Shown: positions 20,028 through 64,000 of the stretch, piece after piece
Position numbering within the stretch: the stretch's first letter is position 1
How the letters are laid out: every line of letters starts with the position of its first letter
Virus record (IMG/VR): IMGVR_UViG_2061766007_000015
Location: 9,636 to 73,635 of that record
Reading direction: 5' to 3' (one strand)
Length of the DNA stretch: 64,000 bases
Source: a virus
Lineage: Duplodnaviria; Caudoviricetes
Translations under genes and position numbers: made by a program
The notes under the pieces: generated by a model
Told to the model about the DNA's origin: nothing
What the model saw: the letters and a program-made list of their open reading frames with translations, nothing else
Database searches by the model: none

Positions 20028-22339
20028 ACTTTTATTGATTCTCCGTACCAAGACTTAGATACTTCTACATCACAACTGAATGGCATATGAAGTATCTTCT
20101 GTGCCGCATCACTCATTACCTGAGCAAGCAACTCTGAACATTCCTTAGCGTTTTCTTCAGGACATTCTGCGATTACTTCATCGTGTACTGGTATAAGCAA
20201 TCTAAAGCCTAACTCTTTCAGCCTTGCATTGTTATGCAAATCAATCATGGCTAACTTTGTTAAGTCTGCGGCACTACCTTGGATTCTTGCATTTACTACC
20301 TGTCTTGTTGCTTCTGCTATCTTCTTTCCGTTGTCAATTATCCAAATACCTTCTTCGTTGGCTTCTTCAAATATCCTACGTTTCTGATTGAATCGACAAT
20401 TAGCAAGTTTAGCCAAATAGTATTTTTGCTTGTTCTCGGGTACAGGTGCAACTGAATCATCTGAATCAAAGTCAAGCACATCCCAATTCACTAATGCGCT
20501 AGAGTCTGACCATTTAAACTCGTACTCGGGTAACTGCATATCTGGCAATCTTCTCTTACGTCCGCATACAGTGGTTACATAGCCTAATGTTCTAGCCATC
20601 TCTAATGAGGTATCTTCAAATATCTTTATCTCAAGATACTTCTTATATAGGTTGGCTTTCAACTGCTTCGCTCTATCCAAAGTTATATGCATGCCATCAG
20701 CAACACTTTCATCACCACGTCCATACAAAATACCTAACAACACTGGCTTTGCATCACTTCGTCTTTGCTTGTACTCTTTAGGGTTCTTATTACCGTTCTC
20801 GTCAAACTCTCGGCACATCTCGTATGCCACTTCAAAACATGCGCTGGCTACGTGGCTGTAAATATCATCGCCTCGTACTCTTGCTTCGTACAATGCTGTA
20901 TATCCCAACTCATTACAGAATGAAGCCAAGCATGACGGCTCTTGCTGACTATAGTCCGATGACAATAACACACATCCGTCACTTGCGGTAAACATCTGTC
21001 GAATGTCTGTAATGTGAGATGGTATGTTCTGTAAGTTAGGTTCGCTACTAGACATTCTACCTGTGTCTGCACCATACTGATTAAACTTACAATGTATTCT
21101 TCCATCATTCGGATTTACACACTCAGGTAGTTTATCAATAAACGTGCTGACTATGGTTGAGAACTCTCGATAGTCTAGTATGGCTTTCGCAACGTCGTTA
21201 TCTATCGCCTTAAGACTTTCTTCGTTGGTACTTCTTGACGGCTTCTTCGTCTTTTTATCGACAGGCTGTTCACACCCTAATATATCGTAGAGTATGATTG
21301 CTAACTGTTGAGGACTCTCGATATTAATCGGGTCACTTAGTTTGCAGTCGTGCTTGTGTATGCTTTTATAACGCTCAATATCGTTGCTGTAACGCTCTAG
21401 AACACTGTAGAAAGCGTTTACACGCTCTTCTAATAGTGCATGATACTTTTCTTTTAATTTAGCGTTATATTCGAAATCAAACTTAACACCAGCGTCTTCC
21501 ATATCAGCCACAACTTCAACTAGTGGCATCTCAATGTTAAAGAATACCCAAGCAAGTTTACGCATATCTTCTCGGTCGGAGTCTGACCTTAGATACTGAC
21601 TCTGGTACAAATAGAACTCATAGGTAATTCTCGGGTCATGAGCCGCATATAAAACTGCTGTCTGTAATGGTATGAGTGTAAATGGTATGCCTTTAAACAA
21701 TTCATCGAAAGTAAACGCATCTTCTTTTCCATCCAATACATACTTCTGATGTAATGGCTTCAATCTGTTCACAGGCTCGTTCTCATTCAACAACCGCTGT
21801 GCTAAATAACAATCCCACGAACAGTATATACCTTTAACACCTACCATGTTTCGCATTACTCGTATATCGAAATCCGCATTGAACATTACGATAAACGGCT
21901 TTGCTTCCAACATGCGCTCAAACTCTTGGCGTATCAGTTCGATTGGCAATTGTCCATCAATCTTACTGTTAGTCATGTAACTAACATGATTGATTGGTAT
22001 ATACGCTTCATTCAGTCCAGGTGTGTAAATACATATACCAGCAACTGTATCAAGCAGTGGATTAAGTCCCGTTGTCTCAGTATCGATACTTACTACACCG
22101 TTCGCAATAATCTTATCAATATATTGTTTTAGGGTCTCTTCGTCCTGGATTAAAGTGCAGTTATCTCGATATTTGCCTAAGTACTTCTCAACCGTGGCTA
22201 TTGCAGTCTGTACTCTGGCCATTAAACCCCCACTACCCTTGATGGTAATGGGGGCTTTGTAAGATGCACTATTTGCTTTTTTCGCTACCGAAACATCCTG
22301 CGCCCTGCTGGGTCTACTCGGTATAGTGAAAAGTGCCAT
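20024..22339 (-). CDS. polA: Family A DNA polymerase with 3'-5' exonuclease and no 5'-3' exonuclease domain
   Basis: IDTETTG, TGRMSSSEPNLQNIP, SDYSQQE, AKPVLLGILYG, IQGSAAD, VHDE. Confidence 0.95.
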   Translation of the reverse strand: MALFTIPSRPSRAQDVSVAKKANSASYKAPITIKGSGGLMARVQTAIATVEKYLGKYRDNCTLIQDEETLKQYIDKIIANGVVSIDTETTGLNPLLDTVAGICIYTPGLNEAYIPINHVSYMTNSKIDGQLPIELIRQEFERMLEAKPFIVMFNADFDIRVMRNMVGVKGIYCSWDCYLAQRLLNENEPVNRLKPLHQKYVLDGKEDAFTFDELFKGIPFTLIPLQTAVLYAAHDPRITYEFYLYQSQYLRSDSDREDMRKLAWVFFNIEMPLVEVVADMEDAGVKFDFEYNAKLKEKYHALLEERVNAFYSVLERYSNDIERYKSIHKHDCKLSDPINIESPQQLAIILYDILGCEQPVDKKTKKPSRSTNEESLKAIDNDVAKAILDYREFSTIVSTFIDKLPECVNPNDGRIHCKFNQYGADTGRMSSSEPNLQNIPSHITDIRQMFTASDGCVLLSSDYSQQEPSCLASFCNELGYTALYEARVRGDDIYSHVASACFEVAYEMCREFDENGNKNPKEYKQRRSDAKPVLLGILYGRGDESVADGMHITLDRAKQLKANLYKKYLEIKIFEDTSLEMARTLGYVTTVCGRKRRLPDMQLPEYEFKWSDSSALVNWDVLDFDSDDSVAPVPENKQKYYLAKLANCRFNQKRRIFEEANEEGIWIIDNGKKIAEATRQVVNARIQGSAADLTKLAMIDLHNNARLKELGFRLLIPVHDEVIAECPEENAKECSELLAQVMSDAAQKILHMPFSCDVEVSKSWYGESIKV

Positions 22340-56824: not shown

Positions 56825-58684
56825 TTATTTTTCGGGCTTCGGCATATTTTTAGCCTTCTGCTCATTAGTGGCTTTCACACCCGATAATGGATTCGATAAG
56901 TTATCTGCTTTAAAGGTTCCATCTTCCTGATTCTGAGCATCTTGTCCGAGTTGGTGCTGAGCCATCATATTAGTTTCAATAGCCTTCTTAGCCTCATCAT
57001 CGATATCCTGAAGAGCCTTCTTAGCCTGATTCTCAGTCTCGTTGAAGTACCACATACGAGTTTCAAGTTTAGAAGCAAGACCATTCTGTACAAGCGTAAG
57101 TCTTGTGGATAATTCAGTCTCAACATCTACTAAGATACTATCGTCCCACTCAAACGAACATTCATACTTTCCTTCGGGTGTAATCTTATACAATGAGCAG
57201 TAGGCATTCATTACATAGACAACATCCTTAAGGGCATCTTCAAGAGCCTGCTGAATATCAGCATTTGTGGAATAACTTCTCTGTCTGAGAATCTTTAACT
57301 CTGTGGCTGTCTTAGCCTCGTTTAAAGGTGTATTAGAGATAGTACCTCTACTCATGCCAGTACAATCTTCAATTCGGGTAAGAATTGCGTTTAAGCCATT
57401 AAGTAAAGAAACGTCTCTAAGTGCAGGAGCAAATACATTATAAGTTTCTTCGGAGTTAAGGTCTATCTTTCTGAATAGTCTTTCCTGTGCTACAGGTCTT
57501 ACTGTTCTATCGTTACCTTCCGCATCCTGTACAAGTTTTAAGGCATCTCTATCTACATCAATAGCAAGTTCGCCGCCTTCAAACTCCCAAAGCATACGAG
57601 AGTACTGCATATCTGCGTCCTTGATTAAGCTTACTACTCTACTATAACCAGATACACCTAAAGGGGAGTACGGGTCTATAATATTTGCTTCAGGCATCTT
57701 GAAGTATGCAAACAATAATCTATCTACACCTTCAAGAGTTGTTTCAGGCTGTAATCCTGACCAAGCAGGTATGTCTGTCAAGGGTACTTCTTTACCAAGC
57801 ATCTCATTACCGTAAGAATCTCTCTTGATTTCACCTGCGGTCGTTCTGTACGCCTTATTAATAATCGTACAACGCTTGCCCTCAAGTTTATGATATTCTA
57901 CTCTGGTATAGAGATAGTCTTTATCCACCATGCGCTGTAAAAACGCGGCTTCAAGCATCTTACCTGTAGAGTCAAACGAGATGGGATAGAAGTCACCTGC
58001 TTTGACATACTCAAATTCTATCTTAGCATGATAATCTTTCTCTTTCTCATCTTCTGACGAGTCATTTAACACTTCATTCTCGCTTATTTTGACTACTGTT
58101 TTATGCTTGTCGATACTTTTATCGACTGTGCTAGTTTCTGTCGCTTCTGAGTCAAATTTGAAGTCATCATCAAACACAGGAAAAGGCTTGATAATGAGAC
58201 CTCCGAGAGCAATTCCGTATTCAAGTTCTCTACGAATATTCTTTTTAACGGACTTAAACTGCTTCGCAAGGTAATCGGCTCTCTCAGTACTACCGATTGG
58301 AACATTTTCGGTAATCGTCATTGCGCCTTGTCCCATTGTAGGCATACCATTTTCATCAGTACTCGGAGCGACATAATCAGGATTAGGTTTCTCTACTTCT
58401 TTCATAGGCGCTGAGATTTCTACTTCCATTTCAAGAGTAGCCATTCTAGCCTTCTCACTCGCAATAAGAGATGGAAGTCCCAACGAAACAATACGAACGG
58501 GATTCTCTTTATCAGGTTCTCTTAGCCAAGGTGCTCGGTTTTCATACATCTTAGACCAGAGACCTATATTGGCAAACATAAGAGATGAAATCTCGTTCTT
58601 GATTTTAAGCGCATCTGTAACCGTCTTTGGTGAAATCATCTTATGCACTATCTCCTTTACTTTAGTAATAAACTTAGAAGGCAT
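56825..58684 (-). CDS. Portal protein (A118/SPP1-like)
   Basis: EYGIALGGLIIKP, SPLGVS, WEFEG, APALR, EWDDSI. Confidence 0.88.
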   Translation of the reverse strand: MPSKFITKVKEIVHKMISPKTVTDALKIKNEISSLMFANIGLWSKMYENRAPWLREPDKENPVRIVSLGLPSLIASEKARMATLEMEVEISAPMKEVEKPNPDYVAPSTDENGMPTMGQGAMTITENVPIGSTERADYLAKQFKSVKKNIRRELEYGIALGGLIIKPFPVFDDDFKFDSEATETSTVDKSIDKHKTVVKISENEVLNDSSEDEKEKDYHAKIEFEYVKAGDFYPISFDSTGKMLEAAFLQRMVDKDYLYTRVEYHKLEGKRCTIINKAYRTTAGEIKRDSYGNEMLGKEVPLTDIPAWSGLQPETTLEGVDRLLFAYFKMPEANIIDPYSPLGVSGYSRVVSLIKDADMQYSRMLWEFEGGELAIDVDRDALKLVQDAEGNDRTVRPVAQERLFRKIDLNSEETYNVFAPALRDVSLLNGLNAILTRIEDCTGMSRGTISNTPLNEAKTATELKILRQRSYSTNADIQQALEDALKDVVYVMNAYCSLYKITPEGKYECSFEWDDSILVDVETELSTRLTLVQNGLASKLETRMWYFNETENQAKKALQDIDDEAKKAIETNMMAQHQLGQDAQNQEDGTFKADNLSNPLSGVKATNEQKAKNMPKPEK

Positions 58685-58747: not shown

Positions 58748-60091
58748 TTAATTTCCTCTCCTCTTCCAGAAACGTTCAGTAGCGTATCTAACCGAGTCAA
58801 TTGAGTGGTTATTAACATCAGGATATCCGCTGATTATCTCATCGTCCTTATCTCGGTCGTATTCATACTCTACAAATTCCTTCAAAGTACCAGGACATCT
58901 TGCGGGGTCAATATAAATATGATTTAATGACTGTAACCATTTCATTGAATACACGATACTATCAGGTCCTTTCTCAGCAGGTCTACATCCATATCCACCA
59001 TAAGATTTATAGTCAGAGATTGATTTAGGTTCCGCCGAATCTGCTGTAAGAATCTCGGTACTTTCCATAAAATGCCGAGGTCTCGGGTGTTCTACATCAT
59101 AAATTCCATCTTCTCGCTCGGGAAAAAGCCACAATTCGTTGTAAAGTTTATCGTAAGTACCTCTGTTACTTACTTTATTGCAACGATACTCCGCAAAAAT
59201 GTATAAATCGCGGTGATTGGCATCGAAATACGACTTGGTAAACGCAAACGGGTCAGGGTACCAACCCCAGTCAATGCCATTGTATATCTGGTCGAAGGTT
59301 GCAATAAGCGAATCGGGCATAGGTAAAGGTACAACGTTCTCGAAAACATTACCGCCAGTACCAACTGGTATGCCTAAATACTCATGCTCGTAGGCTTTTG
59401 GATTGGTGCGCTTAAGGTCTTCGGCTTCATCGATGAAGGCTGGACCAAGCCACTCAGGAGGTACATCCAAGTAGGTATTTTTCATGGTATACGTGTTCTC
59501 ACGTCCCATGGCATCTACAAAGTACTGATTAGCCCAATTTAAGTTACTAATTGGCGGGTTAAAAGAACGAAAATCCCAAAACAACTCGCCGCCACGCATT
59601 GTAGACTGTAAAACTTTACGAATTTCAGCCTCGCCTGAGTATTGGTCAAGTTCTTCCCACCAGGTAATGCCTATATAGCCAAAAGGCAACTTAATTGACT
59701 TAATCTTATCAGGACTATCTAAGCCCATAAAGAGAATTTGCTGTCCTGTAGGCAAATAAACTATAGGATTGGCTATAGATTTTGGTATATGGAAGAAACT
59801 CTCAAGTCCTAACTTGTAAATTCCCCATACAATCTGTGACCAAACTGAGTTTTTGATGGTATTTCCGACTTTTCGGAACACACAGGCATGTACATTGGGA
59901 TAGTTTACGATTAAAAGGGGTGTTGCGATTGAAAAAAGCGATGATTTTGTTGAGCCACGGCCACCCGCATTAGTATAATGTGTGTGGCCATGTTTCAAAA
60001 TGTCCTGTAATTCATCAAAGAATTGACCAATTATGACCTCATGCATCTTTATATTGATTTGAGGTACAAATATTGGCTTAGGACTCGGCAT
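58748..60091 (-). CDS. terL: Terminase large subunit (PBSX family)
   Basis: GGRGSTKSS, FRKV, WEELDQ, SFNPP, GIDWGW, DSAEP, HSIDSVRYA. Confidence 0.93.
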   Translation of the reverse strand: MPSPKPIFVPQINIKMHEVIIGQFFDELQDILKHGHTHYTNAGGRGSTKSSLFSIATPLLIVNYPNVHACVFRKVGNTIKNSVWSQIVWGIYKLGLESFFHIPKSIANPIVYLPTGQQILFMGLDSPDKIKSIKLPFGYIGITWWEELDQYSGEAEIRKVLQSTMRGGELFWDFRSFNPPISNLNWANQYFVDAMGRENTYTMKNTYLDVPPEWLGPAFIDEAEDLKRTNPKAYEHEYLGIPVGTGGNVFENVVPLPMPDSLIATFDQIYNGIDWGWYPDPFAFTKSYFDANHRDLYIFAEYRCNKVSNRGTYDKLYNELWLFPEREDGIYDVEHPRPRHFMESTEILTADSAEPKSISDYKSYGGYGCRPAEKGPDSIVYSMKWLQSLNHIYIDPARCPGTLKEFVEYEYDRDKDDEIISGYPDVNNHSIDSVRYATERFWKRRGN

Positions 60092-60572
60092 TCATGCCTC
60101 CCCAATCTAATACTAACTTGATTTCCCTATTTTCGTCTGTAGCCTTAGCAGGTGCATCGATAATTCTCTTTGCAAGTTCTTTAGCCGCTGAGGTACGTTC
60201 TGAAAGTGGTGCATCTAAGCCAAACTGGTCTTTTTCATCGCCGCGCATTACCCTTGTAAAATACCCTAAAATTTCATTCGCATCTGCAATGGCTGTTTTA
60301 TCCATTTCCTCGATGCGGTATACGATTTCATCGTATATATATGGTTTGCTTAAAAGTGCTTTACCCTTTGCTCTGTAATGAGCATCGTCCTGCTTATTAG
60401 CCGATGGTGCAAATCCAGCAAGTTTTGTTGCTGAGACTAAATCACCATCCTTCATAAACTCATTAATGAACTTATGCTCCTTAAGAGACAATTTAGAACC
60501 CGAATGAGTGTAAAAGACCTGAACAGCACTGTTTGAGCCTCTTACCAACGCTTCTAATTCTTCTTTTGTCAT
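60078..60572 (-). CDS. terS: Terminase small subunit
   Basis: KFINEF...AGF, EILGYFTRVMRG, KELAKR. Confidence 0.75.
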   Translation of the reverse strand: MTKEELEALVRGSNSAVQVFYTHSGSKLSLKEHKFINEFMKDGDLVSATKLAGFAPSANKQDDAHYRAKGKALLSKPYIYDEIVYRIEEMDKTAIADANEILGYFTRVMRGDEKDQFGLDAPLSERTSAAKELAKRIIDAPAKATDENREIKLVLDWGGMNAES

Positions 60573-61342
60573 CTTCTGCGTCTACCTCCCTTTGCTCGTT
60601 TCTTTTCTAATTCATTGGCAATTCTTGCCAAAGATGATTCCTTAATGCCGCTCTTGGAACGGTTCATCATATCCCTTATCTTCAAGGCACCACTCTTATC
60701 AGAAGGCGATGCATTAGGGTCATTAATGACTGAGTTGAGGGACGGTGAACTTGTTTTAACCTCTGTTGCGCTCTTAGTAGGTATGTTAGGGTCATAAGCC
60801 CTAATTATCATTTCAGAGCCATCTTTGGATAACTTAAACTGAAAGATAATATCTTTCTCTTCCTCAGAAGCAACAGCAATCCTGATATCATCTTTGCCTT
60901 GGTCTCTGAAATCCGCCTCACGTGGAGCCTTGTCAGTAAGTTTTCTGGCATTGCCTATGCCATAAACTGAGGTTGACTGCGAGGTTCTGTGTTTCCTATT
61001 AGCAAGTGCTGTAGCGCCCATTTAATCCTCCGTTTCCTGCGAGAGTTTTATCTGCTCTCTGATATTGTTCCACATCTCATTGTCAGTTGGTAACTCTTGT
61101 CCATTTTCCACAAACCACATATCTCTCAAAAACAAAACCATTCTGATAAGTGATGTTGTCTTATAAATAGAAACAGTGTCATACTTGCCCTTGTCAGCAT
61201 TCCAGCAACCTCTGCTCAATTCGAATAAATTATGAGGCATGCCTTCCTTGCCCATAAACTGCTTCTTGGCATATAACAGATTATGTCCTTTCATATTAAG
61301 CGCCTGTATTAACTTCTTAACCGACTGATTATAATCCGCCAT
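60569..61342 (-). CDS. Two hypothetical genes upstream of terS (60569-61021, 61022-61342)
   Basis: ORF track, RBS, promoter near 61370-61398. Confidence 0.55.
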
Positions 61343-61680
61343 AATTATTAGCCTCCGTTTCTACTAAAACTATAACATTAGATTTCGCTATTGTCAATCA
61401 AAAAGCCATTGGCGGCGAAATTCCTCCCTCCCACGCTCCCCAATTTCCCCAGGTTATTGGTATCCGGTACCGGTATAAAATCGCAAGCGCACCCCTGGTT
61501 TATTGGAAACCTGACGGGACGTGTATCCAAGTGCTCAACTCGCTCTGCGCTCAAAAAAGCGTGTCAGTGCAACGAGTATACGTATGTGTGTTGTCGTGCG
61601 TGTCTATGAGTCTCTGTGCGTGTTATTTGAGTATGTTTTTGCGTTGTGCTGTGCGTGTAGAATTTTAAAATCGCACAAAA

Positions 61681-61709
61681 AAAAGAGCACTCTATTTGAG
61701 TGCTCTTTT
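61681..61709 (-). terminator. Intrinsic terminator of the island gene
   Basis: AAAAGAGCACTC-TATTT-GAGTGCTCTTTT; T tract on the minus strand. Confidence 0.85.
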
Positions 61710-61719
61710 GTGTTGCTGT

Positions 61720-62280
61720 TTACTGTGCTTTTGCTGTCTCTGTCTTTTGTGCTGTTGCTGTCTTGCTTGCTGTTGCTGTCTTTTGTGCTTTTGTCTCTGT
61801 CTCAAAAGCAACTACACAACGTTGTGCGTACTCAAGTGTGTTAAATAACTCTGTCAGTGTGTTGAAGTAAGAACGTATTACAAAAGACTGTTTGTAACTC
61901 TGTCTTGCAAAACACATTGACTTGTCACACTGTAAGTACTTCTCTATCTTATCAAAAGATTGTGTGAATTGAATTGCGCTAGCATCGTATATCTTGCATA
62001 TTGTGTGTTGCTTGCTGTCAAGTAGTGTTAACGTACACGCTTGACTTTCAGATATTTCATAATGAAAGTCATTGCTGATTAAGTGCTTATCAAGTGTTGC
62101 AAGTGCTGACTCTTCACAGAGACTTAAATCAGTGAAAAACTTCTTAAGTGCTGTGCGCTCTTCTTTTGTCGCTGTGCTTTTTCTCAGTGCTCTAACTTCT
62201 TTTGCGCTGTAAATCGTTGTGTTAACTTCTTTGATTGCTTTTACAGTGTTGTTAGTGTTGTTAGTTTTAGTAGTTTTCAT
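61720..62280 (-). CDS. Putative immediate-early protein lacking Gly, Pro and Trp
   Basis: 186-aa ORF with its own promoter, RBS region and terminator. Confidence 0.75.
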   Translation of the reverse strand: MKTTKTNNTNNTVKAIKEVNTTIYSAKEVRALRKSTATKEERTALKKFFTDLSLCEESALATLDKHLISNDFHYEISESQACTLTLLDSKQHTICKIYDASAIQFTQSFDKIEKYLQCDKSMCFARQSYKQSFVIRSYFNTLTELFNTLEYAQRCVVAFETETKAQKTATASKTATAQKTETAKAQ

Positions 62281-62349
62281 TCTACGCCCACTTTCTCGTG
62301 CTTTAGCACGTTAAACTATGAAATTTCGCACACTATTGTGCTTGAGATA

Positions 62350-62410
62350 ATAATAAACGATATACTACGTAAATGCAAGCACTTTTTGAAAAAAAAATTA
62401 TTTTTTTTGC
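62350..62410 (-). promoter_or_regulatory. Sigma-A-type promoter with A/T-tract UP element
   Basis: TTGCAT (62378-62373)-N17-TATTAT (62355-62350), preceded by A and T runs. Confidence 0.7.
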
Positions 62411-62788
62411 TTATAATAGTAGAAACACTTTTAAAAATCACTTTTTAAAAGTGCTGTAAACGTTGATTTTATGCGCTTTTGCGCTCTTTTTTCGTGCTGT
62501 TTTTTGTTGCGTTCTTTCTATATTAATGCGATTTTTCATTAAGCACTTTAGTGTGCGAAAGCGCAGATTGTGAGAGTGGGGTACCCGCCAGAGAGCACCC
62601 ACCAGCACAATAAAATAGTCCTCTCTCCGGAGAGTAGTCCTGAGCCGGGGCTGTAATATACACCTTAACCCCGCCTCACCGGTGCGTGGTGCCAACCGCT
62701 AGCGGAAAAGAAAAATAACCCAGCGGGACCTAATAATAGGCTCACTGGGTAGTTGGCTTATATATAACGTCGGTAAAGGTGATGTAGT

Positions 62789-63010
62789 CTATCGTACATC
62801 TACCCATACTTCTATACTATAGTCTGTCTCTGTTACTGTATAGTCCTTTGCCTTAATCTTCTCTACTACTTCGGCATCTTCACACTCATCGATATTGAAC
62901 TGTAAGAACTCATCAAGGGAATTGAACTCGTAGAACTCATCGCTGAAATCTACGGCATAAATAGAATTGTTTCTTACTGCTAATACATAGGGCTTGTTAC
63001 TCATATTCAT
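62789..63010 (-). CDS. Small acidic early protein
   Basis: ORF with RBS and upstream promoter-like module. Confidence 0.55.
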   Translation of the reverse strand: MNMSNKPYVLAVRNNSIYAVDFSDEFYEFNSLDEFLQFNIDECEDAEVVEKIKAKDYTVTETDYSIEVWVDVR

Positions 63011-63202
63011 TTTCCTCTCTGCTTTTTAGAAGTGTGCTCTTCTATGATTTTATTGTAACATCCTGAGGTTTACTTATACTACAGGACTTTGCGTGTATCA
63101 CACTCTTTTCGTGCTCGCCCGCTGATTTCCTTGAGGTACCCGCCAGCGGTGCTAGTATGATGGTGGGTACCTGTCCTATAATAAGAGGGTGCTTGCGCAC
63201 TC

Positions 63203-63535
63203 TCAATCAATATCATCTACATATATGGCCTTCTTAATGTGCTCTTTAATCTCGTTGTACATGTTTCCTAATACCCACTCGATAGCATCTTCTTCGCTGT
63301 GCTCGTCAGTCGCATCGTACCACACGTTGGTCTTAAAGTGAATATCATCGATTCTGACACGATAGCGAACCATACGTTTTTCAGGCTCTTCTTCCTCTGC
63401 GTACATCTCGTCACGCTCATACTGTTCGGCTTTGTCTACTGTCTGCCAAAACTCATACTCAGGGTCTCTAGGCTCGCACATATCAACTCCATCCATACCT
63501 TCGGGAAATCTTTCTGTTAAATCAGGAATACGCAT
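63203..63535 (-). CDS. Acidic early protein
   Basis: ORF with AGAAAGG RBS and upstream promoter-like module. Confidence 0.55.
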   Translation of the reverse strand: MRIPDLTERFPEGMDGVDMCEPRDPEYEFWQTVDKAEQYERDEMYAEEEEPEKRMVRYRVRIDDIHFKTNVWYDATDEHSEEDAIEWVLGNMYNEIKEHIKKAIYVDDID

Positions 63536-64000
63536 AATATAACCTTTCTCGTTTTTAGAAGTGTCGTTCTTCTCTATGCTTATAGTCTACAGCCTATGGA
63601 TACTGAATAATATTGGCATTTTATAGGTCCCCTTTTCTCGCACCGGGCGGGTACCAACCTGGTGCTATATACAAAAGAGAGCCGTTAGACTCTCTACTGC
63701 ACTTTAATGTAAGTAATACATGCGCCCTCATCGGCAAGCATCTTTTCGATACAGGACTGGGCACACTGTGCTGATTTTGCAGAAACTTCAAATAATTCCT
63801 GCTGGGTGTCATCGTTAATGTCTTGATACAATACGGTTACTACATAGTCTTTCATAGGTTCGCTTTCTGTGGTCTGTTAGAGTGTCACTTAACTCTATAG
63901 TATAAGTATACTATCCCTATACAATCTAAGACTATTGGTCTTTCTCTTCTCCTCCCCGGCTGGTACCCACCGTGTTTCTTCTTATATATAATATGGCGGG

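Follow-up and report, generated by a model that had tools for sequence, protein, structure and literature searches.

The window analyzed here is a 64-kb stretch of DNA covering bases 9636 to 73635 of the 73,635-bp IMG/VR virus record IMGVR_UViG_2061766007_000015; positions are those of the window unless a relative is named. The 50-bp "direct terminal repeat" of the record looks like an end overlap from circular assembly rather than true genome ends. Upstream of the packaging genes, positions 61529 to 62577 form an island of 1,049 bp that is free of GG and CC dinucleotides (GG/CC), with a CCC at 62287 to 62289 as the sole exception. The island holds one open reading frame (ORF) for a protein of 186 amino acids on the minus strand (ORF186; 61720 to 62280). 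The protein contains no Gly, Pro, or Trp and has a Thr/Asn-rich N terminus and a Lys/Glu/Thr/Ala-rich C-terminal tail. ORF186 occupies a conserved slot that belongs to a fast-evolving, clade-specific gene family.

The sole GG/CC of the island is a GGG on the sense (minus) strand, 7 to 9 nucleotides ahead of the ORF186 ATG, and we read it as the residual core of a Shine-Dalgarno (SD) sequence. Farther upstream on the same strand lies a promoter-like TTGCAT-17-TATTAT sequence (62350 to 62378), itself preceded by an A/T-rich tract (62382 to 62412) and an operator-like palindrome (62426 to 62453). The promoter of the cassette is weaker than the first-pass annotation of this DNA had implied: the match to the consensus is only 8/12, and the candidate was missed both by a promoter scan and by a scan for matches of at least 9/12. 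The strong terminator stem built without GG/CC that had been described there was found at 61681 to 61709 (minus strand), where an intrinsic terminator consists of a 12-bp GG/CC-free stem followed by a T run. The remainder of the island (61529 to 61680) is a noncoding tail that is CA-rich on the sense (minus) strand and carries ACACGCA/CACACA-type motifs, which recur in the same tail position in relatives, including those without an island.

The island is limited by GG at 61527 to 61528 and by GG at 62578, and its internal gaps are 760 and 290 bp, whereas the longest GG/CC-free gap elsewhere in the window is 183 bp. On the basis of the island's own base composition (G 208 plus C 178 of 1,049), ~71 GG plus CC would be expected, which falls within the range of 60 to 80 estimated in the first-pass annotation, and 2 were seen. 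The window as a whole contains 4,417 GG or CC (per 100 bp, median 7, 95th percentile 11, and maximum 24), and the ratio of observed to expected (o/e) GG plus CC for the whole genome of this phage is 0.89. The sharp edges and GG/CC-rich borders attributed to the island were also confirmed, since the 100-bp bins bordering it carry 23 and 22 GG/CC, near the window maximum. Within the island, GC, TG, GT, CT, and AA are enriched but the C-to-T products AG and GA are not, and deamination-type decay is therefore no explanation for it. No DNA match to the island region was found in public phage records, no Rfam family was detected at E ≤ 1 within positions 60500 to 64000, and no tRNA lies near the island.

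GG/CC-free coding stretches of 150 to 250 bp were also seen in the genes for the portal (57996 to 58179), a clamp-loader delta-like protein (826 to 1008), and PolA (21331 to 21489), and the same stretches recur in place in the relatives G004, G010, G023, L003, L008, L009, and L011. They were rejected as signs of a wider phenomenon: most of them encode Gly/Pro/Trp-free protein segments, and codon resampling gave P values of 0.001 to 0.28 for stretches that had been selected post hoc. Similarly, a 457-bp GG/CC-free stretch in G023 proved to be an ordinary operon gene.

When the ORF186 protein was kept fixed and its codons were redrawn from the usage of the phage, the mean number of GG/CC was 20.6, and zero was reached in none of 20,000 resamples. 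The purge is therefore also synonymous and operates at the nucleic acid level, and it takes in the noncoding flanks as well. The earlier proposal that selection acts on the nucleic acid rather than on the protein, and does so over the whole transcription unit, is supported and strengthened by this resampling, by the split-GG SD sequences and GG/CC-free terminators of relatives, and by the existence of both purged and normal orthologues. In this one transcription unit, the GG·CC step has long been under strong counterselection on both strands, and this selection overrides protein composition and signal strength.

A total of 80 related loci were collected through terL, the gene for the large terminase subunit, and those with a TerL that is 67% to 75% identical constitute the close clade. 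At least ten close-clade loci (L003, L004, L007, L008, L009, L011, L012, L016, L018, and L034) have an island of 0.36 to 1.44 kb that is GG/CC-free or nearly so, ends 200 to 300 bp before the gene for a 106-amino-acid protein, and has GG/CC-rich borders. Among the whole genomes, one large island each is present in G000 (the phage of the window), G002, G004, and G005, and none is present in G006 (the genome of locus L022), G015, G021, or G013. The genome-wide GG-plus-CC o/e ratio is 0.89 to 0.99 across these genomes, so that there is no genome-wide depletion of the kind expected of protospacer-adjacent motif (PAM) avoidance. The related contigs were binned with metagenome-assembled genomes of rumen and gut Lachnospiraceae/Clostridia, such as Pseudobutyrivibrio, and the ends of linear relatives fall at unrelated places.

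Each island contains a plausible gene for a protein of 124 to 200 amino acids with a Thr/Asn-rich start and almost no Gly, Pro, or Trp. In L034 and L018, the island holds a second small gene, and in L008, the island gene is inverted and the purge is kept. The SD sites of the relatives have been rewritten as AAAGTGAG, AGAGAAAG, or AGAAAGCGAG or retain a single GG; residual GG is found mostly at the SD site, and partly purged copies have a few Gly or Trp codons. Terminators are made of GC, CG, AG, and CT steps without GG/CC. In the purged relative L124, 1,088 bp of a phage with 42% G+C contain zero GG/CC, and this span covers a TTGACA-17-TATAAT consensus promoter of the sigma-70 type, a GG-free SD sequence, the gene with its terminator, and a further ~270 bp past the latter.

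The 13-mer GTTGTATAATGTT forms the −10 region of the L124 cassette promoter (sense promoter L124:9890-9935). Downstream of the gene it is found again, in antisense orientation, at L124:10600-10640 and at the equivalent position in L125. Nearly all of the island proteins (alignment A1, P0003 to P0009) end in Ala after a Lys/Glu/Thr-rich tail (..KTEA, ..EKQA, ..ESVTA, and ..KEQTA).

The first-pass annotation had raised the question of whether homologous loci in relatives contain normal GG/CC levels. The answer is mixed: most close relatives share the purge, but L022, L006, and L125 are clear same-slot orthologues in which GG/CC levels are normal. The genes at L022:3699-4211 and L006:2091-2600 carry 54 to 72 GG/CC, close to expectation, and encode 8 to 11 Gly, Pro, or Trp residues. 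The island ORF of L004 (768 to 1313) is clearly homologous to these genes (E 1e-35 with L022) and aligns end to end; it has 3 GG/CC versus 38 expected and encodes no Gly, Pro, or Trp, the Gly and Pro residues having been replaced by Asn, Asp, Lys, and Ala. The normal state of these orthologues of the L004 gene means that the protein does not intrinsically need to lack Gly and Pro. L125, which is nested among purged relatives, has the same layout as L124 with ordinary GG/CC. No other missing motif was found in the normal orthologues or paralogues.

A second, distal paralogue has normal GG/CC levels in the three copies analyzed (L022:405-1007, L007:240-983, and L005:160-759), and in L007 it is normal while the proximal copy is purged. 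Judging by size and position only, the distal paralogue is probably also present at L124:6328-6936 and L125:7864-8466.

Among 120 database homologues at least 63% identical to the L022 protein, the count of Gly plus Pro plus Trp was bimodal, being ≤1 in 64 proteins and 4 to 16 in the other 56. In a quick maximum-likelihood tree, the normal proteins grouped tightly into a single clade, except for a pair that lay within the purged ones. Two changes explain the states on this tree, versus a mean of 40.1 in 500 label shuffles, none of which gave a value as low, with the caveat that amino acid convergence at former Gly/Pro columns could inflate the clustering. The purge is a discrete on/off state that is maintained by selection and has been held across deep divergence.

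Homology among island ORFs could be traced through several links: the profile of alignment A2 (the L022/L004 subfamily, 68 sequences) to the L007 island ORF (4e-11), A4 to A2 (E 7e-4), L007 to L011 (9e-6), and L016 to L018 (1e-14). The ORF186 group was not reached by profile; what it shares with the others is only its slot, its overall architecture, and the succession of predicted secondary-structure elements. A scan of IMG/VR with A2 gave no loci beyond those already collected. ORF186 itself has two close relatives only, and an exhaustive profile search with the shallow alignment A1 returned eight proteins, apparently close relatives of known island ORFs. No Pfam or PHROG family, that of Alc included, was matched by ORF186 or by five members of the family.

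The AlphaFold model of ORF186 based on A1 was unusable, with a mean predicted local distance difference test (pLDDT) score of 42, but the A2 subfamily gave a confident model (pLDDT, 90.8; predicted template modeling [pTM] score, 0.85) with N-terminal helices, a β-β-β-α-β-β arrangement, and a long C-terminal helix. A PDB sequence search with A2 returned nothing below E 0.27. The structural neighbors of the model are type III secretion system (T3SS) chaperones, YbjN, and the DNA-binding C-terminal domain (CTD) of MotA (Foldseek E from 7e-4; VIA Z, 5.5 to 7.7). The matches to T3SS chaperones, whose CesT/SycE-like fold runs α-β-β-β-α-β-β-α, had Foldseek E values of 7e-4 to 0.1 and VIA Z scores of 5.5 to 6.8, with TM scores of 0.28 to 0.42 by query and 0.35 to 0.53 by target. 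Among viral models (BFVD), the neighbors were a PhiW-14 protein and an "ALC protein" (TM, 0.46 to 0.47; ALC E, 0.012), and in the ESM Atlas they were DUF4268 and a domain within a GmrSD_N-family protein (TM, 0.56 to 0.58 by query). The order of α/β elements is the same as in the T3SS chaperones, YbjN, and the "double wing" of the MotA CTD, with Foldseek probabilities of 0.97 to 1.0 for several chaperones and Z scores of 6 to 7.7, whereas the island protein has an additional N-terminal helical part and the Lys/Glu/Thr/Ala tail. Z scores below 8 may reflect just a common arrangement, and function is not transferable from such matches. The A2 subfamily protein is thus predicted to contain a T3SS-chaperone- or MotA-CTD-like α/β domain, and the matches, being middling, are leads rather than assignments.

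Whole-genome restriction site counts for G000 were made from window positions 1 to 64000 together with L083. Only 1 GATC was found versus ~255 expected, 14 AGCT versus ~255, and 3 GCAGC versus ~96, and GAATTC and AGCGCT occur once each. Avoidance of short palindromes is extreme in all of these phages, and the set of avoided sites differs among them (G000, G002, G004, G005, G006, and G011): G004 has 1 CTAG versus ~218 expected, G006 has no CTAG and 11 ACGT, and ATTAAT and TTTAAA are nearly absent from several genomes. The islands obey the avoidance list of their own genome, as in G000, where the island contains no AGCT versus 8.9 expected and no GCAGC versus 4.3 expected, and they are therefore long-resident DNA rather than an import. 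The island thus lacks both GG/CC, the SD sequence excepted, and the sites avoided genome-wide, and such motifs occur elsewhere in the genome. The GG/CC-containing sites GGCC (o/e 0.38), CCGG (o/e 0.61), GGWCC, and CCWGG are just partly depleted genome-wide, and to the same extent in the unpurged G006.

With host- and phage-encoded readers of GG/CC taken together, target avoidance is the explanation that accounts best for the island, and we put it forward tentatively, as plausible but somewhat short of an even chance. Under target avoidance, the island would be a self-contained early cassette driven by the host RNA polymerase and made up of a promoter region, a structured 5′ untranslated region, the gene, its terminator, and flanks. 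Such a cassette would be out of reach of any activity that depends on GG or CC for binding, cutting, or marking nucleic acid, and the gene would stay intact and expressible while other DNA in the cell, of the host or of the phage, was exposed. A whole genome cannot give up its Gly, Pro, and Trp codons, and the purge would therefore pay only in a unit that must work first. In this scheme, we infer early expression, the GG/CC reader, staged entry or protection, and the function of the protein.

The favored reader, possible although rather unlikely when taken singly, is one encoded by the host: an NGG- or CC-type PAM of a clustered regularly interspaced short palindromic repeat (CRISPR) system or the GG/CC-containing restriction sites that are partly depleted genome-wide. 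GG and CC are absent from both strands of the island, as PAM avoidance would need. NGG- or CC-type PAMs impose just such a requirement for two bases on either strand, and the constancy of the PAM type across host strains would fit a trait that is steadier than the restriction-avoidance profiles. In its most specific form, this would be a stealth strategy of SPP1-like siphophages of rumen Lachnospiraceae, in which a pre-early cassette alone is exposed to a GG/CC reader until its own product protects or takes over, the reader being likeliest a CRISPR-Cas system with an NGG or CC PAM; we regard this as a speculative but conceivable scenario. Evasion of GG/CC-reading defenses, one of three options offered in the first-pass annotation, thus still belongs to the best family of explanations, but it is unproven, and a hunt for CRISPR spacers found nothing.

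Several observations weigh against target avoidance. No spacers against the phage were detected in 401 Lachnospiraceae genomes searched with 20 kb of phage DNA, which is a weak test; the matches were of low complexity or due to chance, recurring on the A/T run and the CTG-type tail of the island, and 0 of 20 regions had a repeat array. This hunt yielded no GG/CC reader, and a search in both directions gave no phage gene that tracks the trait. The unpurged G006 equals the purged phages in its partial depletion of GGCC, CCGG, and GGWCC, and restriction pressure of the GG/CC type is therefore not enough on its own to tell the two states apart. Pooled islands showed no general avoidance of palindromes beyond the sites that each phage avoids anyway. 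The weakest point of all target-avoidance models is their reliance on a staging of entry or protection that is unproven. An SPP1-like module usually means headful packaging with permuted ends, so that a fixed first-entering end is not expected, and in a genome that enters all at once, a cassette without sites offers no rescue from cuts made elsewhere. Finally, the trait is steadier than restriction-avoidance profiles, and a constant reader fits it better than strain-variable restriction-modification (R-M); such a constant reader could be a PAM, core host machinery, or a phage protein.

A reader encoded by the phage, be it a nuclease directed at host DNA or a shut-off factor of the Alc type (perhaps the cassette product itself), comes second and is in our judgment unlikely. 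Such a reader would account for the association of the purge with the gene, although not for the escape of the remaining genome. The T4 Alc protein (167 amino acids) offers a comparison: it is a small early protein, as the cassette product would be, it stops host transcription only on DNA with ordinary cytosine, and it has a weak predicted-fold resemblance to the A2 model. However, there is no sequence similarity, and T4 replaces all of its cytosine to exempt itself, a pathway that was not found in these phages.

In its self-immunity form, which is part of target avoidance and just as doubtful as a phage-encoded reader in general, an Alc- or MotA-like takeover protein or a DNA-binding or nuclease-associated product would act, at GG/CC, on DNA or on the RNA polymerase transcribing it, and its own gene would be exempt so that synthesis of the protein could go on. 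This would agree with the purge tracking the gene and transcription unit in either orientation (L008) and with the great stability of the state on the gene tree, where the normal state forms one tight clade, as after a change in protein function. The model resembles the MotA C-terminal "double wing" (Z 6.8), a predicted "ALC protein" (TM 0.47), and a GmrSD_N-family domain (TM 0.58 by query), and T4 Alc is known to terminate transcription at many discrete sites, only on unmodified C-containing DNA (PMC2988021). The fold matches, however, are middling and tie with those of the T3SS chaperones, and PHROG or Pfam similarity is lacking. In addition, the remaining genome, with its normal GG/CC levels, would also be hit, and no exempting base-substitution pathway was found; the purge runs 150 to 210 bp upstream of the promoter, beyond the needs of an elongation terminator; and the normal orthologues have no other purged motif.

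Target avoidance confined to a first-acting region has parallels in known systems. According to a preprint reviewing earlier work, EcoRI sites and CRISPR targets are of consequence to T5 only when they lie in the pre-early region, and the author proposes that the nuclease with which T5 attacks host DNA has no sites there (bioRxiv 10.1101/866236). The likeness lies in a limited region that functions before the rest of the genome is safe. However, the T5 first-step-transfer region comprises ~10 kb in a long terminal repeat and its two-step entry is proven, whereas the island unit comprises 0.4 to 1.4 kb with one or two genes in phages with SPP1-like packaging, and no dinucleotide-wide purge is described for T5. 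Members of the T7-like Autographiviridae escape type I R-M if the first-injected region alone is free of the motif, even with copies elsewhere, and their leading regions are variable and carry anti-defense genes (PMC12455610). That case concerns one type I motif and a known injection order, whereas the island erases a whole base-pair step and reshapes protein composition. Genome-wide PAM depletion in phages points to selection against short CRISPR-Cas motifs on both strands (PMC4246573), and depletion of the I-F PAM is reported for Pseudomonas phages (PMC12174588). Those depletions are statistical, genome-wide, and directed at known PAMs, whereas the erasure in the island is complete but local, in a genome with an o/e ratio of ~0.9.

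A modification-free zone, in which the cassette would have to remain free of a mark placed by the phage on bases in a GG/CC context, is improbable. The phage does encode two TAGT-family glycosyltransferases (PF20691 at 3.5e-32 and 9.3e-14), which the first-pass annotation had linked to such a zone, as well as an N6/N4 methylase and a QueC-like PP-loop protein, and TAGT genes are present in all four core purged genomes examined. However, the TAGT, methylase, and QueC-like genes do not covary with the island, and this option is accordingly not supported: G006 has both TAGT genes, the methylase, and the QueC-like gene, yet its GG/CC-free gaps do not exceed 75 bp; neither the methylase nor the QueC-like gene is present in G005, which has the largest island; and G011 has islands without TAGT. 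C5-methylase (PF00145) and ThyA-like hydroxymethylase (PF00303) were absent from the five genomes searched, in which the controls worked; Tet_JBP (PF12851) gave no match, but its control matched nowhere either. No G000 gene is common to G002, G004, and G005 yet missing from G006, and the reverse search gave nothing interpretable. The near-total avoidance of GATC, AGCT, and GCAGC also argues against modification, since it implies that the DNA is cleavable by ordinary enzymes and is not generally protected.

We consider it equally improbable that the selection concerns RNA or the speed of expression. A GG-free transcript would lack internal SD-like or CsrA-type GGA sites, a Gly/Pro-free protein would be read fast, and CC would be lost because convergent promoters also transcribe the antisense strand. 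The consensus promoter of L124, the GTTGTATAATGTT promoter-like motifs that face back into the gene in L124 and L125, and the residual GG at SD sites are consistent with this idea. Against it, the purge includes DNA upstream of the promoter and, in several phages, extends far past the terminator; GG and CC are equally lost, and the purge is kept in the inverted gene of L008; GG/CC levels are normal in L125 despite the same antisense motifs; and ordinary highly expressed phage genes show nothing alike.

More improbable still is a structural or packaging signal, likewise among the options of the first-pass annotation, in which DNA without the A-philic GG/CC step beside pac or cos repeats would serve terminase cutting or the retention or ejection of an end. 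Next to the island there is always a GG/CC-rich block with many repeats, immediately ahead of the terminase operon, and GG/CC-poor stretches beside terL are also present in the more distant L046, L081, and L050, but L022, L006, and L125 share the terminase module and repeat block without the purge, and the island length of 0.4 to 1.4 kb varies with the gene unit. Chance, mutation bias, or recent foreign import has nothing in its favor except the odd, GT/TG/GC-rich look of the island and is practically negligible: 2 GG/CC were seen versus ~71 expected, there is no excess of AG or GA, the ORFs, SD sites, and terminators are intact, the island shares the site avoidance of its genome, and the purge is conserved across deep divergence. 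These explanations were refuted by composition, shared site avoidance, the tree, and synonymous resampling.

Single-motif avoidance in first-acting regions and mild genome-wide PAM depletion are already known, and our literature search turned up no published case in which a base-pair step is erased completely and locally while purged and unpurged orthologues both exist in nature. If the stealth strategy outlined above is real, it would mean staged genome entry or protection in a phage group in which none is known, and nature would offer here its first example of a PAM or target erased locally and so completely that three amino acids are banned from a protein. The small protein is probably central to the first minutes of infection, and the trait could reveal a new defense/counterdefense pair or host shut-off mechanism in abundant uncultured rumen phages. 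Purged and normal orthologues at one slot are natural controls for a clean on/off trait, which makes it directly testable, and the purge offers a simple signature by which "must-work-first" genes could be recognized in the sequences of other phages.

The genes that follow the island are all on the minus strand and form an SPP1-like packaging module, with a Terminase_2 small subunit, a Terminase_3 large subunit, and an SPP1-type portal all present. The operon 106aa-150aa-terS-terL is preceded by a near-consensus, TG-extended TTGACA-17-TATAGT promoter (61369 to 61397, minus strand; 11/12). Its first gene, which encodes the conserved 106-amino-acid protein and served as a synteny anchor (61022 to 61342), is followed by a conserved gene for a 150-amino-acid protein (60569 to 61021), the small terminase gene terS (60078 to 60572; Terminase_2, phrog_51), and the large terminase gene terL (58748 to 60091; Terminase_3 plus Terminase_3C). 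After terL come the portal, scaffold protein, and capsid genes. The description of the island as lying just upstream of terS therefore needs correction, because the 106- and 150-amino-acid protein genes intervene and 957 bp separate the island edge from the terS start. Among the other products of the phage are PolA, RecA, an SNF2 helicase, clamp and clamp-loader proteins, and proteins like DnaB, DnaC, and DnaG.

The proximal GG/CC-rich block (61398 to 61528, minus strand) contains direct repeats, such as CCCCAGGTTATTGGTATCC / CCCTGGTTTATTGGAAACC, and relatives carry three or four iteron-like boxes (ATTTTCTAWAKAA..) in this block. The block may thereby offer sites to which TerS (pac) or a late activator could bind. 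The iteron-like boxes (ATTTTCTATATAAGTGGGC, ATTTTCTAAAGAAC.., and variants) are spaced 30 to 40 bp apart just upstream of the packaging-operon promoter and were located in the L019-L034 proximal blocks, in the window at 61398 to 61528, and at L124:10880-11100, in purged and unpurged phages alike.

On the other side of the island, the distal GG/CC-rich block (62578 to 62760) contains palindromes and opens with GGTACCCGCC. It also has GCTGGTGG on the minus strand at 62599 to 62606, which we take to be the E. coli Chi sequence; as we read it, its orientation would be readable by an enzyme arriving from the island side. There are just two copies in the genome, which may be due to chance, and no inference was drawn from an E. 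coli-type Chi beside the island. In several relatives, the sequence directly upstream of the island reaches up to 31 GG/CC per 100 bp and reads as Pro/Gly-rich ORFs or collagen-like triplets on one or other strand; the loci are L007:3401-3660, L016:2560-2824, L018:1050-1250, L034:3100-3360, and L012:420-670.

Perfect copies of GTTTCACGTGAAAC, presumably the core of a bacterial parS/ParB site, were not found in the window, even with three mismatches allowed, but occur in or beside GG/CC-free islands or nearby early regions of relatives (L012:1638-1651, L034:4773-4786, L050:4847-4860, L018:169-182, L038 [three copies], L031 [two copies], L041, and L080). In one relative (the contig of P0097), terL is split by a NUMOD4/HNH_3 homing-endonuclease gene. 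Upstream of the island in the window, small genes of unknown function are separated by GC-rich palindromes, and GGTACCCRCC is present there in 8 copies versus 1.7 expected, often as inverted pairs in the intergenic regions among these genes (62580 to 62589, 63135 to 63171, 63646 to 63659, 63958 to 63971, and the first 60 bases of the record).

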